The translations under genes and the position numbers were made by a program. Shown in pieces: positions 48,452 through 59,213 of a stretch of 64,000 nucleotides of DNA (position 1 is its first letter; each line of letters starts with the position of its first letter). The stretch is from Anaerolineae bacterium (GTDB lineage Bacteria; Chloroflexota; Anaerolineae; B4-G1; DUEL01). Below the pieces are notes generated by a model. That model was not told the origin of the DNA. It saw only the letters and a program-made list of their open reading frames with translations, and did no database searches. The stretch spans positions 11,511-75,510 of the forward strand of contig JBMFKS010000002.1 in the NCBI GenBank assembly GCA_049972045.1, in the 5' to 3' direction.

Positions 48452-49132
48452 TTGGGACGCAAGGTACATCCCTACGGCTTTCGGTTGAAGATTCTGCGGG
48501 ATTGGAAGGCCCGCTGGTATGCCGACGGCAAGGCCTACCGGGACCTGCTGCAGGAGGACCTGCGCATTCGGGAGTACATAGAGCGGGAACTGGCCCCGGC
48601 GGGGGTCTCCCGGGTGGAGATTGAGCGCTTCCCGAACCAGGTGCAGGTAACCATCTGGACAGCCCGACCGGGCATTGTGATCGGGCGGAAGGGCGGCGCG
48701 GTGAAGGTGCTCCGCCAGGAATTGGAGGAGATGACCGGCAAGCGGGTGCACGTGGATGTGCGGGAAGTGGAGCAGCCGGAACTGGACGCCCGGCTGGTGG
48801 CCCAGAACATCGTGGCCCAACTGGAGCGCCGGATTTCCCACGGCCGGGCGATGAAACGAGCCATCCAGCAGGCCATGCGGGCTGGAGCCCAGGGGGTCTG
48901 GATTGTCTGCAAGGGCCGCATCGGCGGCGCCGAAATGGCCCGCCCGGTGGCGATGCGGGAGGGCCGGGTGCCTCGCCAGACCCTGCGCGCCGATATTGAC
49001 TTCGCCCGCGCCGAGGCCTACACCACCTATGGCCGCATCGGCGTCAAGGTCTGGATTTATAAGGGGGACGTCCTCTCTCCCGAGAAGAAACCCGAGACCA
49101 TAGAGGAGCAACCGCAGCCGTTTGTGGTGTGA
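48452..49132 (+). CDS. rpsC: 30S ribosomal protein S3
   Basis: 'GRKVHPYGFRL'. TTG start after GGAGGAG; the longer ORF from 48377 is rejected. Confidence 0.93.
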   Translation: MGRKVHPYGFRLKILRDWKARWYADGKAYRDLLQEDLRIREYIERELAPAGVSRVEIERFPNQVQVTIWTARPGIVIGRKGGAVKVLRQELEEMTGKRVHVDVREVEQPELDARLVAQNIVAQLERRISHGRAMKRAIQQAMRAGAQGVWIVCKGRIGGAEMARPVAMREGRVPRQTLRADIDFARAEAYTTYGRIGVKVWIYKGDVLSPEKKPETIEEQPQPFVV

Positions 49133-49153
49133 GGCCCGGGCAGTACTTTTAGC

Positions 49154-49387
49154 ATGGAGTTCAAGCCGTCCGTTCATAAAGACTTCCGTCATTTGCCCAG
49201 ATCGGGGGTTGAGCGCGCGCTGAGACGGATTGAGGAATTGCGGGAAAACCTTTTCCTCCAGGGGTGGAGAAATTGGATATAGGCTTCGTCTGGGCGATGA
49301 TCGCGTCGTGGATGAGGTGATACACGGGCAAGGCGAAACCCAGTCATATATGTTCGCCATCGCCTGGAGGTATACCGAGCGCTTTAA
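49154..49387 (+). pseudogene. RelE/ParE-family toxin pseudogene (at least two frameshifts) inserted between rpsC and rplP
   Basis: Frame A: MEFKPSVHKDFRHLPRSGVERALRRIEELRENLFLQG. Frame B: ..GGEIGYRLRLGDDRVVDEV. Frame C: ..NPVIYVRHRLEVYRAL*. Together these reproduce the RelE/ParE consensus (...L.G.L.G.YRLRVGDYRviYeV....v.ilrIgHRkdvY). Confidence 0.7.
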
Positions 49388-49411
49388 TGATCCAGCAGGG
49401 GAGTGAAACCG

Positions 49412-49834
49412 ATGTTGATGCCGAAACGGGTGAAATATCGCAAGCAGATGCGCGGGCGGATGAAGGGCCGCGAGAGCCGGGGCACCGAGGTCGCCTTTGG
49501 CGAATACGGCCTGCAGGCGTTGGAGCCGGCCTGGATCACCAGCCGTCAGATTGAGGCTGCCCGGCGGGCCATCGTCCGCTTCGTCCGTCGGCGCGGAAAG
49601 TACTGGATTCGGATTTTTCCTGATAAGCCGGTCACGGCCAAGCCCGCCGAGACCCGCATGGGGAAGGGAAAGGGCGCCGTGGACCACTGGGTGGCGGTGG
49701 TGCGGCCCGGCCGCATCCTCTTTGAACTGGCGGGCTTGCCCGAAGAACAGGCCCGGGAAGCCATGCGGCTGGCGGCCAACAAACTGCCCATCAAATGTCA
49801 GTTTGTCACCCGAGAAAAACTGGTGGGGGAGTAG
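49412..49834 (+). CDS. rplP: 50S ribosomal protein L16
   Basis: '[19 protein letters not shown]'. Confidence 0.95.
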
Positions 49835-49835
49835 C

Positions 49836-50051
49836 ATGCGAGCCAGAGAACTCCGGATGTTGACGGACGCCGAACTGCGGGCCCGATTGGAAGAGGCCTA
49901 TCGGGAACTGTTCGTCCTGCGGCAGGACTGGTTTATGAACCGCCTGCAGGATAATAACCGTATCACCGCCACGAAGCGGGATATTGCCCGCATCAAGACC
50001 ATCCTGCGGGAGCGGGAGTTGGCCCGGATGTTGCAGGAGGCGACGCAATGA
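49836..50051 (+). CDS. rpmC: 50S ribosomal protein L29
   Basis: '[26 protein letters not shown]'. Confidence 0.93.
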
Positions 50052-50320
50052 GAGAGCGGCGGAAACGGCTGGTTGGGCGCGTCGTCAGCGACAAGATGCA
50101 GAAGACGGTGGTGGTACAGGTAGAGCGGACCCGCCGCCACCCGCTCTACGGCAAGGTGGTGCGGGTGCGGAAAAAGTACTACGCCCACGATGAGGAAAAC
50201 GCTTGCCGCACGGGCGACTTGGTGCGGATTGTAGAGTCCCGGCCCCTCAGCCGGCTCAAACGGTGGGTGGTGGAGGAGATTCTGGAACGGTCTGAGCGTC
50301 CTGAGGAGGTGGCGGCATGA
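50048..50320 (+). CDS. rpsQ: 30S ribosomal protein S17
   Basis: '[20 protein letters not shown]'. Confidence 0.95.
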
Positions 50321-57006: not shown

Positions 57007-57669
57007 ATGGGCTGCCGGATCGTACTGTTGGGAATGCCTGGAGCGGGCAAGGGAACCCAGGCGGAGCAACTGGCTCAGGCGCTGGGTGTCCCGCATGTGG
57101 CCAGTGGAGACCTGTTCCGGGAGCACCTGGATCAGGGGACGGAACTGGGCCGCCAGGCGCGGGCCTATATGGAGCGGGGCGACCTGGTGCCCGATGAGGT
57201 GACCATCGGCATGGTCGCCGAGCGGATCGCCCGTCCGGATTGCACTGGCGGCTTCATCCTGGACGGCTTCCCGCGCACCGTCGCGCAGGCGGAGGCGCTG
57301 GAGCGGCTCCTGCGGGGGAACGGGACCGCGCTGGATATGGTCGCGTTCATCCGGGTGCGGGAAGAAGTGGCCCTGGCCCGCCTGGCGGGCCGCTGGACCT
57401 GCCGGAACTGCGGGGCCGTCTACCACACCCTGTTTCATCCGCCGAAGCAGGCGGGGGTATGCGACGCCTGCGGGGGCGAACTCTATCAGCGTCCCGACGA
57501 GACGGAGGAAGCCCACCGCCGCCGCCTGAAGGTCTACCAGGAGCAAACGGCGCCGCTGGTGGACTACTACCGCCGGGCCGGCCTGCTGGTGGAAATAGAC
57601 GGCGAGCAGTCCATTGAAGACGTCCAGGCCGACTTGCGGACGGCGGTGGAGGTGGCCTGCGGCCGATGA
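57007..57669 (+). CDS. adk: adenylate kinase (Zn-lid type)
   Basis: 'ILLGMPGAGKGTQA'; LID cysteines CRNC...CDAC. Confidence 0.96.
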   Translation: MGCRIVLLGMPGAGKGTQAEQLAQALGVPHVASGDLFREHLDQGTELGRQARAYMERGDLVPDEVTIGMVAERIARPDCTGGFILDGFPRTVAQAEALERLLRGNGTALDMVAFIRVREEVALARLAGRWTCRNCGAVYHTLFHPPKQAGVCDACGGELYQRPDETEEAHRRRLKVYQEQTAPLVDYYRRAGLLVEIDGEQSIEDVQADLRTAVEVACGR

Positions 57670-58451
57670 TCCACCTCAAGTCGGCGGGCGAGATTGAAAA
57701 AATGCGCCGGGCCGGGCGGATTGTCGCCGAGGTCCTGGAGCGGATGCGGGAGTGGGTGGCGCCCGGCGTCACCACGGCGGAACTGAACCAGAAGGCGGAG
57801 GAACTGATCCGGCGCCGGGGCGGCATCCCGTCCTTCCTGGGCTATCCGCCGGGCAGTCCGCATCCTTTTCCGGCCGCGATCTGTACGTCCATCAACGAAG
57901 AACTGGTCCACGGCATCCCCGGCCCCCGGGTACTGAAAGAGGGGGACATTATCAGCATAGACGTCGGGGCCATCTACGACGGCTATCACGGCGACGCGGG
58001 CATCACCCTGCCGGTGGGGGAGGTGAGCCCGGAGGCCCGGCGGCTGTTAGAGGTGACGGAGGGTGCCCTCTATGCCGGTATCGCCCAGGCCCGGGCCGGG
58101 AACCGCGTCGGCGACATCTCTGCCGCCATCCAGACCTTCGTGGAGTCCCGGGGCTATAATGTGGTCCGGGGGTACACCGGGCACGGCATTGGCCGGCAGA
58201 TGCATGAGCCGCCGCCGATTCCCAACCACGGAGAGCCGGGGCAGGGCCCGCTGCTGCGGTCGGGAATGACCGTCGCTATAGAGACCATGGTCCTGGCGGG
58301 CGACTACCGGGTGCGGACCCTGCCCGACCACTGGACCGTTGTCTCCGTGGACGGCAAACTGACGGCCTACTTTGAACACACCGTCCTGATCCGGGACGGA
58401 GAGGCGGAGATACTGACTCCGTGGCATATTGCTACTGTCAGCGGGGTATGA
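57666..58451 (+). CDS. map: type I methionine aminopeptidase
   Basis: 'MIHLKSAGEIEKMRRAGRIVAEV' plus metal-ligand blocks. Confidence 0.95.
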   Translation: MIHLKSAGEIEKMRRAGRIVAEVLERMREWVAPGVTTAELNQKAEELIRRRGGIPSFLGYPPGSPHPFPAAICTSINEELVHGIPGPRVLKEGDIISIDVGAIYDGYHGDAGITLPVGEVSPEARRLLEVTEGALYAGIAQARAGNRVGDISAAIQTFVESRGYNVVRGYTGHGIGRQMHEPPPIPNHGEPGQGPLLRSGMTVAIETMVLAGDYRVRTLPDHWTVVSVDGKLTAYFEHTVLIRDGEAEILTPWHIATVSGV

Positions 58452-58454
58452 GAA

Positions 58455-58682
58455 ATGGACTGGCGAGAATATATCACGACCGACCCAGGGATTTGTCACG
58501 GCAAGGCCTGTATTAAGGGAACACGCATTCCGGTTTCCGTGGTTTTAGATAACCTGGCTGCCGGTTTGAGTGTGGAGGAAATTCTGCACAGTTACCCGAG
58601 CCTGAGCCGGGAAGCCCTGCAGGCAGCTATAGCGTATGCTGCCGAGGTCGTCAGCGAACGGTTAGTACCGTTGCCAGCATAG
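58455..58682 (+). CDS. DUF433-family small protein (putative antitoxin)
   Basis: '[57 protein letters not shown]' matches the DUF433 consensus closely. Confidence 0.8.
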
Positions 58683-58690
58683 TATAGTGA

Positions 58691-59074
58691 ATGGATCCGT
58701 CTCCCTGCTTTAAAGTTGACGAGAATTTGCCCGTTGAGGTGGCAGAATATCTGCAGCAAGCGGGGTATGATGCCAGGACTGTATGGGAAGAGGGAGTTAG
58801 CGGGGTATCGGATGCCGTCATCGCCGACATCTGCCTTAGGGAAAAGCGGGTGCTTCTGACTTTGGATACCGATTTCGCTGATATTCGCAGGTACCCGTCT
58901 GAAGATTATCCCGGCTTGGTGGTTCTGCGATTGAGGAGGCAAGAAAAGCCTTACGTGTTGAGGGTGGTGTCTCGTTTGCTTCCTATGTTCAGGGTAGAAC
59001 CTGTTAAGGGGCGGCTTTGGGTTGTAGAAGAAGAACGCGTCAGGATCCAGGATCAGAGCAGGAGGATAAAGTGA
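58691..59074 (+). CDS. DUF5615-family PIN-like (Mut7-C-like) protein (putative toxin)
   Basis: '[25 protein letters not shown]...[25 protein letters not shown]...GLVVLRL'. Its stop overlaps the rpmJ GTG. Confidence 0.75.
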
Positions 59075-59184
59075 AAGTTTCACCGTCCGTCAAACGGCGC
59101 TGTCCCAAGTGCAAAATCATCCGGCGCAAGGGCGTGATTCGGGTCATCTGCGAGAACCCGAAGCACAAACAGCGACAGGGCTAA
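59071..59184 (+). CDS. rpmJ: 50S ribosomal protein L36
   Basis: [40 protein letters not shown] start after GGAGGA. Not in the ORF track (<60 aa). Confidence 0.9.
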
Positions 59185-59213
59185 TCTGCTATTTGCAATC
59201 TGCTGGAGGACGT

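Follow-up and report, generated by a model that had tools for sequence, protein, structure and literature searches.

Strain-variable toxin-antitoxin and candidate defence cassettes at fixed junctions inside the S10-spc-alpha ribosomal-protein operon of one Anaerolineae clade

We found that in one genus-level clade of Anaerolineae five junctions of the S10-spc-alpha ribosomal-protein operon serve as hotspots for small toxin-antitoxin (TA) and candidate defence cassettes, whose content differs from strain to strain. The cassettes probably lack promoters of their own, are transcribed by read-through and are exchanged by recombination through the conserved genes on either side. The stretch analysed, referred to as the window, comprises 64,000 nt of an Anaerolineae bacterium genome (GCA_049972045.1, contig JBMFKS010000002.1, positions 11,511-75,510, forward strand).

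From rpsJ to rpsI, four junctions of the window exceed 140 nt, namely S3/L16 (279 nt), L15/SecY (440 nt), SecY/Adk (706 nt) and Map/L36 (619 nt), and all remaining ones measure 0-138 nt. Across about 80 Anaerolineae species the medians of these four junctions are 54, 53.5, 29.5 and 49 nt, respectively, and gaps seldom reach 200 nt there. Each of the four long gaps contains type II TA sequence on the operon strand (Table 1). A first-pass annotation of this DNA had placed TA modules in the only long gaps of the operon, in the same orientation as the ribosomal genes and close against them, which is borne out by the gap lengths, the strand layout and the Pfam matches; the latter were obtained for all families it had named, ParE_toxin staying under the cut-off (16.8 bits on a reconstruction spanning the frameshifts). 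Gaps longer than 200 nt in the remaining 43 kb of the window yielded no TA family. As for the possibility that the apparent pseudogenes are assembly errors, the lesions are kept in all six independent assemblies (contigs L001-L006, built from different samples by different assemblers), which are 99.8-99.98% identical to the window with zero indels in the four gaps, and are therefore not errors. Decay and turnover of the TA loci, proposed earlier for two of the four sites, are supported, but three of the four occupied junctions are dead remnants. Decay in the window genome is nearly complete: the DUF433/DUF5615 pair is the sole one still open, and the C-terminus of its toxin is altered.

Table 1. 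Cassette-derived features and rpmJ in the window
Feature	Position	Strand	Basis or remark
RelE/ParE-family toxin pseudogene, rpsC/rplP junction	49154..49387	+	Pfam; alignment to L010 pair
DUF4258 toxin gene, codons 1-76 of 84	54544..54771	+	3 nt after rplO stop; alignment to L010
DUF2283 antitoxin-like gene, 3' part (codons 17-81)	54772..54971	+	Pfam; alignment to L010
MNT-type nucleotidyltransferase gene, cassette type 1	56297..56629	+	Pfam NTP_transf_2
HepT (HEPN) toxin gene type 1, 5' remnant	56616..56811	+	Pfam; alignment to L010 HepT
MITE-like repeat within HepT gene	56812..56960	.	Terminal inverted repeats
HepT type 1 tail (…IAG/…EPLLP) joined to SE-stop end of deleted second MNT/HepT cassette	56961..57006	+	Alignment with L010, L009, L007
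DUF433 (COG2442) antitoxin-like gene, intact	58455..58682	+	3 nt after map stop; Pfam
DUF5615 PIN-like toxin gene, ORF open	58691..59074	+	Pfam
rpmJ (L36)	59071..59184	+	GTG start

At S3/L16, the RelE/ParE toxin gene is a pseudogene as first described, with fuller damage than the two or more frameshifts reported. Alignment to relative L010, where the ParE orthologue is intact (42.8 bits) and accompanied by a RelB-like partner (33 bits), reveals deletions of 1 nt near 49247, 16 nt at 49277/49278 and 1 nt at 49318/49319, and the antitoxin gene has been lost along with about 390 nt upstream. The remnant sequence is the same in L001 and L002. At L15/SecY the DUF4258 and DUF2283 assignments hold, but not the idea of a working pair, as an 81-nt deletion at 54771/54772 removes the last 8 codons of the toxin and the first 16 of the antitoxin, including its start codon. 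Past the deletion, the DUF4258 ORF continues out of frame as far as 54855. Pfam detects only the N-terminal part of DUF4258 (16.7 bits; 27.4 bits for the L010 orthologue, an intact gene of 84 aa) and only the C-terminal half of DUF2283 (28 bits; 64 bits in L010), and dN/dS of DUF4258 between the window and L010 is 0.04. The Shine-Dalgarno sequence of secY (TAAGGAG) overlaps the DUF2283 stop, and its ATG (54981) lies 9 nt past the end of that gene.

For SecY/Adk, Pfam and the L010 alignment agree with the earlier reading of an MNT gene with an in-frame TGA followed by a HepT/HEPN remnant. The MNT gene (45 bits) carries a TGG-to-TGA nonsense mutation at 56348-56350, shared with L001-L003, where L010 has TGG (Trp). 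The HepT fragment matches only profile positions 4-47 (31.8 bits), in comparison with an intact protein of 115 aa and 94 bits in L010; its lesions include a 1-nt deletion at 56658/56659, in-frame TAG codons at 56685 and 56811, an internal deletion and the MITE-like insert. The latter is bounded by the terminal inverted repeats GTGGTTTGTCAAC (56815-56827) and TTGACTAACCAC (56943-56954), and was not found in the aligned HepT genes of L010. A partial inverted copy (91%) is located at 15515-15583 of the window, and a full inverted copy (91%) at 15532-15678 of L001, downstream of rpsI. At the position of the fused tail, L010, L009 and L007 possess a type 2 MNT/HepT cassette; the adk Shine-Dalgarno GGAG is still present in the fusion.

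The Map/L36 pair had been called intact-looking, which is correct for DUF433 (95 bits over its full length; dN/dS of 0.03 against L009) and for the open frame of DUF5615 (67 bits), although the latter is not unaltered. A 7-nt tandem duplication (CAGGATC, 59041-59054) shifts the frame in its last codons, so that the ending RIRAGG-stop is replaced by a different C-terminus, and a P70S substitution affects a YPP motif otherwise invariant among the 100 homologues compared; strain L087 retains YPP and lacks the duplication. COG2442/DUF433 proteins are given as partners of PIN toxins in Synechocystis (PMC4963859). The closest DUF5615 relative beyond the clade is 64% identical and has a non-ribosomal context. 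As stated before, the DUF5615 stop (TGA, 59072-59074) overlaps the rpmJ start (GTG, 59071-59073) in a GTGA sequence, and the rpmJ Shine-Dalgarno AGGAGG (59060-59065) falls within the DUF5615 reading frame. The GTG start with the DUF5615-tail leader is confined to the colonised clade, the outgroups all having ATG and unrelated leaders, and the tail with these signals remains even where the toxin has been deleted. In turn, the suggestion that this insert sits exactly where infA normally lies proved a red herring: no IF-1 gene was found in 112 Anaerolineae loci (1.9 Mb) around the operon, and map directly adjoins rpmJ in uncolonised relatives; hence the absence of infA is unrelated to the insert.

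Comparison with relatives, mainly those of 94-98% SecY identity, reveals at least ten cassette types at five hotspots. S3/L16 accommodates RelB/ParE, and L5/S14 either a 108-aa ORF with DUF2283 or RelN-like orphan ORFs. DUF4258/DUF2283 is found at L15/SecY, MNT/HepT of types 1 and 2 or PDC-M38 A/B at SecY/Adk, and DUF4160/DUF2442, DUF433/DUF5615 or DUF4258 with a YgiT zinc-finger protein at Map/L36. Judging by its PADLOC scores (203 and 51 bits) and its AAA_21 and DUF3226/OLD-TOPRIM domains, the PDC-M38 pair is a candidate AbiL-like defence system. Orthologous cassettes occupy matching positions in at least eight species or strains, and junction content is shared in part, varying from strain to strain. 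Within one species we observed presence, absence and replacement: L088, L093, L095, L097, L099 and L100 have secY DNA 99.5-99.8% identical, yet differ in content at four junctions. All five junctions are empty in L106, an abundant strain (411x coverage), which shows that the operon runs without the cassettes and that they are dispensable accessories. DUF433/DUF5615, the 108-aa ORF with DUF2283 and M38B are 98.6-100% identical among L092, L093 and L096, whose flanking genes are 83-96% identical. As all relatives are metagenome contigs, this pattern of cross-species sharing could also be produced by assemblies that are chimeric across conserved ribosomal genes; the L096-type arrangement recurs, however, in other samples (L108 and L109), which speaks against chimeras. 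The cassette genes show dN/dS of 0.03-0.16, including those now broken in the window, which suggests that they were once functional. As proposed, the pattern is lineage-specific, carriers being restricted to genomes whose SecY is at least 94% identical. In outgroup L011 (78% SecY identity) Map/L36, the one junction within coverage, is empty, and the remaining Anaerolineae species (about 70) have compact junctions, save for a few non-TA inserts (L036, L039, L078).

Cassettes start 0-11 nt past the stop codon of the preceding gene, too close for a separate promoter to fit in between. No sigma-70-like promoter was detected on the + strand of 44000-63990 by a scan that models sigma-70 only, and terminator-like sites in this region are fewer than in shuffled sequences. 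Spacing and the absent consensus signals thus point to transcription by read-through from the ribosomal-protein promoters, with translation presumably from own or coupled start sites. The 3' ends appear to carry or keep the Shine-Dalgarno of the next essential gene, so the cassettes would not be polar. Spread among strains and species would proceed by homologous recombination, for which the strongly conserved ribosomal genes would supply the homology arms; comparison of filled and empty sites showed no target-site duplication or att-like repeat. Cassettes might be retained temporarily by addiction and/or an anti-phage benefit, and would disappear through deletions, nonsense or frameshift mutations or the insertion of a MITE, mostly in the toxin gene.

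A possible, less favoured reading is that the cassettes are selfish or neutral hitch-hikers, landing everywhere in TA-rich genomes, surviving only where the junctions of an essential operon are loosely coupled and addictive until the toxin is inactivated, with no host benefit or special ribosomal link. The pervasive decay in the window and the empty junctions of L106 fit this account, as does the looseness of the colonised junctions in outgroups (medians of 30-54 nt versus 1-8 nt at tightly coupled ones). HicBA and PIN pairs lie inside the ruvCAB cluster in the L094 flank. Given these pairs, TA insertion into housekeeping operons may be a genome-wide habit rather than a preference for the S10-spc-alpha operon, the comparison of operon and genome being based on 43 kb within the window plus the flanks, each about 5 kb, at ten loci. 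However, the loose junctions S13/S11, S11/S4, S4/rpoA and S10/L3 were never colonised, and low dN/dS and near-identical cross-species cassettes fit some selective advantage more easily, even if addiction and recombination could suffice.

Slightly less likely still is an anti-phage islet with the operon acting as its sensor, in which transcription shut-off by a phage or by starvation would lead to antitoxin decay, firing of the toxins and abortive infection or growth arrest. With no space for own promoters, the supply of antitoxin would be tied to transcription of the ribosomal operon, provided that it is labile, which is an assumption. PDC-M38, with its AbiL-like ATPase and OLD-TOPRIM protein, is present at SecY/Adk in several strains, strain-level presence/absence and allele diversity resemble those of defence hotspots flanked by core genes, and in other bacteria roles in abortive infection are documented for modules of the MNT/HepT, PIN and RelE/ParE types. 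Yet, three dead cassettes in the window and none in L106 make any benefit conditional, and the DUF433/DUF5615, DUF4258 and DUF2283 proteins are not covered by any PADLOC model.

The earlier proposal that TA loci stabilise or regulate the ribosomal operon, e.g., tuning expression of translation genes under stress, is unsupported and very unlikely: linkage, co-orientation and the rpmJ signals in the retained DUF5615 tail agree with it, but an essential operon needs no stabilising, content varies among strains of one species, L106 manages with none and most copies in the window are dead. That the frameshifts, stop codon and inserts are assembly or binning artefacts, conceivable as all data come from metagenome assemblies, is next to impossible given the six concordant contigs and the orthologous cassettes at the same positions in relatives.

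Read as promoterless cassettes, these loci share with chromosomal type II TA modules (RelBE/ParDE, VapBC-like PIN with COG2442/DUF433, MNT/HepT, DUF4258/DUF2283, DUF4160/DUF2442) the two small adjacent co-oriented genes of the same Pfam families, a distribution that is patchy and mobile, frequent decay, and the occurrence of orphan genes. A canonical module forms an operon of its own under an autoregulated promoter; in contrast, cassettes that start just behind an essential gene and end at the next Shine-Dalgarno are internal cistrons of the ribosomal-protein operon, and toxin and antitoxin roles here are putative. The same pair types have been catalogued in Synechocystis (PMC4963859). Integron arrays likewise consist of small cassettes in one orientation that lack promoters, in many cases carry TA genes and are expressed from a promoter upstream, but here cassettes are interleaved with essential genes rather than forming a single array, and no integrase or attC-like repeats were found at their boundaries. 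Non-ribosomal spc/alpha genes (secY, adk, map, infA; the extras in L036, L039 and L078) also indicate that some junctions tolerate additional cistrons, yet these are stable housekeeping or single lineage-specific genes, not a polymorphic TA/defence set. Defence and accessory hotspots between core genes (integration hotspots, defence islands) resemble our loci in their fixed sites, alternative cargo (here including PDC-M38), strain polymorphism and exchange via flanks. Those hotspots, to our knowledge located between transcription units, usually take kilobase-scale islands with integrases, whereas here five micro-hotspots in one essential polycistron take co-oriented cargo of 0.3-2.3 kb without integrase. 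Full-text literature searching returned no earlier description of such a cassette hotspot in this operon, in line with the first-pass annotation, to which we add strain variability, PDC-M38 and exchange across species.

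The genes rpsL-rpsG-fusA and tuf, followed by the S10-spc-alpha cluster through rpsI, occupy positions 35964-63893 of the window on the plus strand. We found that four junctions of the cluster are long, i.e., S3-L16 (279 nt), L15-SecY (440 nt, counted as far as the secY ATG at 54981), SecY-Adk (706 nt), and Map-L36 (619 nt), all remaining rpsJ-to-rpsI junctions being 0-138 nt. In around 80 species-level Anaerolineae genomes, the medians of the same junctions are 54, 53.5, 29.5, and 49 nt, respectively, and gaps of at least 200 nt are rare. The G+C content of the four gaps is 52-57%, compared to about 64% for the DNA overall. 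The first-pass annotation had placed four toxin-antitoxin (TA) modules or their remnants in these gaps. Junction lengths, Pfam profiles, and intact orthologues in L010, a contig of a sister species, confirm this observation, and the relatives surveyed extend it, while its interpretation proved only partly right. All proposed family names are supported by Pfam, clearly for DUF2283 (28 bits), NTP_transf_2 (45 bits), HepT-like (31.8 bits), DUF433, and DUF5615, and weakly for parE and duf4258, the pair of genes with the heaviest damage (16.7 bits for the latter). The weak assignments are rescued by L010, where intact orthologues occupy the same positions (RelB-like 33, ParE 42.8, DUF4258 27.4, DUF2283 64, MNT 53, and HepT 94 bits). 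TA genes were not detected in any other window gap longer than 200 nt, and an Rfam scan of the window returned two tRNAs only, with zero matches within the gaps.

At the S3-L16 junction, alignment with the sister species revealed a RelB-like-ParE pair in L010. In the window, the antitoxin gene and around 390 nt are lost, and the toxin gene, with deletions of 1, 16, and 1 nt, no longer forms a full-length ORF; in light of its L010 orthologue (42.8 bits), it can be regarded as a pseudogene of a true family member. The junction is empty in L009, another sister-species contig, and its 84-nt spacer (L009 4171-4257) includes a long hairpin with perfect pairing (GGTTTTTGGGTGCAGCGG…CCGCAGCCCAAAACC). 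At L15-SecY, both proteins of the pair are intact in L010, DUF4258 with 84 aa and DUF2283 with 81 aa, and the pair is likewise intact in the relatives L088, L092, L093, L095, and L099. Neither domain (71 and 49 profile positions) is complete in the window, where an 81-nt deletion between 54771 and 54772 removed the end of duf4258 together with the start of duf2283 and, since it spans their boundary, broke both genes. The L009 copy carries stop codons and a frameshift, and in the sister-species contigs L007 and L008 the junction is empty.

The ancestral SecY-Adk junction, as reconstructed from the sequences, held two tandem MNT/HepT cassettes (types 1 and 2). L010 still has an intact type 1 together with mnt2, type 2 survives in L009 and L007, and the window retains type 1 alone, wrecked. 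The window MNT preserves the GS…DxD nucleotidyltransferase motif (LLGSAPRDDFSPDSDWD), yet its ORF is interrupted at codon 15, where Trp TGG became TGA (56348-56350); a TTG start could still open an ORF of 88 aa, shortened at the N-terminus. The window HepT is not an intact HEPN protein with the Rx4-6H catalytic motif: it displays a 1-nt deletion/frameshift, two TAG codons, and a MITE-like insert of around 140 nt, and the stretch that in L010 contains RDHLIH (Rx4H motif) is deleted. Of type 2, the window has kept nothing but the last codons, which hold the adk Shine-Dalgarno (SD) sequence. The MITE-like repeat is bounded by terminal inverted repeats (GTGGTTTGTCAAC / TTGACTAACCAC) and has zero Rfam family matches. 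A 146-aa ORF antisense to the MNT/HepT remnants, present as a gene call in the public assemblies L002 and L003 of the window population, has zero family matches and most probably represents a shadow ORF.

Features of the window and, where indicated, of a related contig
Feature	Position	Strand	Remarks
RelE/ParE (PF05016) pseudogene	49154-49387	+	16.8 bits (cut-off 23), after joining three frames
DUF4258/DUF2283 remnant pair	54544-54971	+	profile positions 1-26 and 20-48 only
MNT/HepT module remnant	56297-57006	+	Pfam and alignment to L010
DUF433 (COG2442), antitoxin-like	58455-58682	+	profile positions 1-56 of 56, 95 bits
DUF5615 / Mut7-C PIN-like nuclease	58691-59074	+	profile positions 3-109 of 110, 67 bits
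Antisense ORF, 146 aa	56459-56899	-	
MITE-like repeat	56812-56960		within the HepT remnant
MITE-like repeat, half copy	15515-15583		inverted, between two genes
MITE-like repeat, full copy	L001 15532-15678		inverted, just downstream of rpsI, past the window end; L001 is a contig of the window population
fusA-tuf insert	39215-43479		4.3 kb
PD40 beta-propeller protein	39700-40938		in the fusA-tuf insert
SpoIID + PA14 protein	40956-42539		in the fusA-tuf insert
Two small ORFs	42757-42948, 42948-43175		in the fusA-tuf insert; zero family matches
rpoB	31691-35620		followed directly by rpsL-rpsG-fusA
rpsL	35964-36434		
EcoO109I-like endonuclease	18-653		restriction-modification pair at the window start
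N6/N4 DNA methylase with zinc ribbon	665-2806		restriction-modification pair at the window start
Three tandem 46-nt GC-rich repeats	19212-19354		upstream of a copper-ATPase gene
Dispersed GC-rich repeat, 43-59 nt	19401-19459, 36458-36500, 39330-39398		second copy in the rpsL-rpsG spacer, third just past fusA

Outside the S10-spc-alpha cluster, fusA is parted from tuf by an insert of low GC (46-52%); the same junction measures only 118-260 nt in the sister species. The rpoC gene is absent between rpoB and rpsL and from the window as a whole.

The Map-L36 junction of the window holds duf433-duf5615 only, an adjacent and co-oriented gene pair of the type II TA kind, in the same order as the PIN-COG2442 pairs described earlier (PMC4963859). 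The DUF433 domain is complete and lies directly upstream of the PIN-like gene. The DUF5615 domain is full-length and retains FK.DENLP, TLD.DF, and DIR, the exceptions being P70S, which falls in the invariant YPP, and R120Q, which stems from a 3' frameshift. A 7-nt tandem duplication (59041-59054) altered the original C-terminus (RIRAGG and stop) and gave rise to the GTGA overlap with rpmJ; in L087, a strain of the same species, both the duplication and P70S are missing. In the sister species, this junction is occupied by duf4160-duf2442 (L010), by decayed copies of these plus a truncated duf433 (L007), or by a remnant of duf2442 along with an intact duf433 but no duf5615 (L009). Throughout the colonised clade, rpmJ starts with GTG and its AGGAGG SD lies inside codons of the DUF5615 tail, which persists wherever the toxin was deleted; all outgroups show an ATG start and other leaders. 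The leader AGGATCAGAGCAGGAGGATAA, which encodes the C-terminal motif RIRAGG with its stop, is combined with the GTG start in the colonised clade only, and it also occurs in L106, a strain with all junctions empty. Therefore, loss of the cassette from L106 is one possibility, the other being a DUF5615 ORF that reads into the native leader; the rpmJ start signals were thus either brought in by the cassette or belong to a native leader that was merely read into. As for infA, whose usual place the Map-L36 insert had been noted to occupy, a link between the insert and the loss of the gene does not hold. Neither the window nor any of the 112 loci (1.9 Mb) yielded an IF-1 gene by tblastn (best E = 0.04) with E. 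coli, B. subtilis, and T. thermophilus sequences as queries, and in uncolonised Anaerolineae map adjoins rpmJ; hence, the absence is a class-level trait that has no relation to the insert.

By SecY, the window falls within the class Anaerolineae of the Chloroflexota, and its nearest relatives are MAGs labelled "Thermoflexales bacterium" or "Anaerolineae bacterium". Those with 94-98% SecY identity, which we retrieved by the window S13 and L16 (identical across the clade) and by DUF5615 homologues, use L5-S14 as a fifth junction. Within the clade, S3-L16 contains relB-parE, intact or decayed, or is empty; L5-S14 contains duf2283 with a 108-aa ORF that weakly matches the PBECR2 nuclease family, RelN-like orphan ORFs, or nothing; and L15-SecY contains duf4258-duf2283, a lone duf2283, or nothing. 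SecY-Adk is occupied by MNT/HepT of type 1 and/or 2, by mnt2 and a hepT2 stub followed by PDC-M38, or is empty. In turn, Map-L36 holds duf433-duf5615, a truncated duf433 accompanied by duf4258 and a gene for a YgiT zinc-finger protein, or duf4160-duf2442, or is near-empty. Intact type II TA pairs of L010 comprise RelB-like-ParE, DUF4258-DUF2283, MNT-HepT, and DUF4160-DUF2442. PDC-M38 is a two-gene candidate defence system consisting of an AbiL-like AAA_21/AAA_15 ATPase (A) and a DUF3226/OLD-like TOPRIM protein (B). It was detected in sister strains (e.g., L093 5915-7672; PADLOC: PDC-M38A 203, AbiLi 157, PDC-M38B 51 bits; Pfam: AAA_21 82, DUF3226 104 bits) and is absent from the window. Six contigs of one species with 99.5-99.8% secY DNA identity differ in content at four junctions, and all five are empty in L106, an abundant population (411x coverage, 97% SecY amino acid identity). 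Map-L36, the one junction covered in the outgroup L011 (78% SecY identity), is empty as well. Among the other Anaerolineae sampled, no TA cassettes were found in the operon, a few carrying other single genes at L15-SecY. In L094, a further relative, ruvC and ruvA are separated by hicB-hicA, and ruvA is followed by a PIN gene together with an 87-aa ORF (18272-20273), which indicates that TA cassettes colonise a second housekeeping cluster in this lineage.

The cassettes seem to move between species. Among L092, L093, and L096, duf433-duf5615, the 108-aa ORF with duf2283, and M38B share 98.6-100% DNA identity, with flanking genes differing by 6-12%, and sliding-window profiles place blocks of 98-100% identity exactly on the cassettes against a background of 83-96%. 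Chimeric assembly is a caveat to this identity, but L108 and L109, which derive from other samples, show an arrangement of the L096 type as well. The window duf433 and duf5615, in turn, are far more diverged than their flanks (80% and 72-74% versus 91% DNA identity), and outside the clade, the closest relative of DUF5615 has 64% identity and sits in an ordinary, non-ribosomal context. Between L092 and L096, identity is 96-100% over around 3 kb from rpsH to rplO (locus 2500-5750) and then 84-93%; such mosaic ribosomal genes point to homologous recombination inside a ribosomal marker operon. Rough dN/dS estimates between species, based on short sequences, are 0.03-0.16 for the cassette genes, including the now-broken DUF4258, DUF2283, and MNT parts, and 0.06-0.08 for flanking housekeeping genes, which implies that the cassettes were functional until recently.

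The cassettes start 0-11 nt past the upstream stop codon, a spacing at odds with the own, autoregulated promoter of type II TA loci, and their 3' ends extend to the SD of the gene that follows. We found no sigma-70-like promoters on the plus strand of 44000-63990, and terminator-like hairpins in this region were fewer than in shuffled sequence; for the gaps, neither promoters of the cassettes' own nor terminators exceeded expectation, and both were rejected. A promoter within the upstream coding sequence, or one of a non-sigma-70 type, is possible. From the spacing and the signal scan, the simplest reading is that the cassettes are internal cistrons transcribed by read-through.

Taken together, we consider it probable that these are accessory TA/defence cassettes which would sit, without promoters of their own, at five permissive junctions, be expressed by read-through from the operon, be swapped by homologous recombination via the conserved ribosomal genes, and be removed by toxin-inactivating lesions. 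Within this explanation, the cassettes might, as we tentatively suggest, persist as selfish, addictive elements. Persistence through host defence is possible though doubtful; PDC-M38 and the diversity among strains speak for such a component, and any benefit must be conditional, because L106 is empty at all junctions and the window cassettes are decayed. Rather improbably, promoterless TA/Abi cassettes placed on the strongest growth-dependent promoters could act as a dead-man switch, in which a shut-off of host transcription by phage, or the stringent response, would starve the cell of antitoxin and let the toxins fire, the conserved flanks allowing interspecies sweeps. That the cassettes regulate or stabilise the operon itself, as the first-pass annotation had suggested, was not borne out, and we hold it to be very unlikely. 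Finally, lesions and inserts as artefacts are excluded: six contigs from different samples (L001-L006, 99.8-99.98% identity to the window) reproduce the gaps without indels, so that the lesions are biological and assembly error behind the frameshifts and the stop codon was rejected.

The S10-spc-alpha cluster is the textbook case of an operon that selection keeps frozen. In this clade, five of its junctions act like hotspots of accessory genes, whose content varies at more than 99.5% secY identity and whose cargo crosses species. Ribosomal-protein operons also serve as single-copy, vertically inherited markers in binning and phylogeny; contrary to such use, those of this clade are mosaic and recombining, and annotators should expect pseudogenised TA fragments in them. 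If expressed by read-through, the cassettes would represent natural TA/defence genes without own regulation, coupled to growth-rate-controlled transcription, and what activates chromosomal TA toxins would therefore become directly testable.

Searches of open-access papers turned up no account of TA modules within operons of ribosomal proteins. The likeness to integron arrays is superficial only, as integrase and attC-like repeats were not seen: integrase (IntI) is absent from all locus gene lists, and no integron-like or att-like repeats were found at the cassette borders. In their behaviour, the junctions resemble defence hotspots flanked by core genes. The genes themselves are members of type II TA families that are known or predicted, and their pair types are catalogued, e.g., in PMC4963859. 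Yet, in contrast to canonical type II TA loci, the cassettes described here lie as cistrons inside an essential operon that leaves them no space for their own promoter, and are distributed over several micro-hotspots and exchanged across species.
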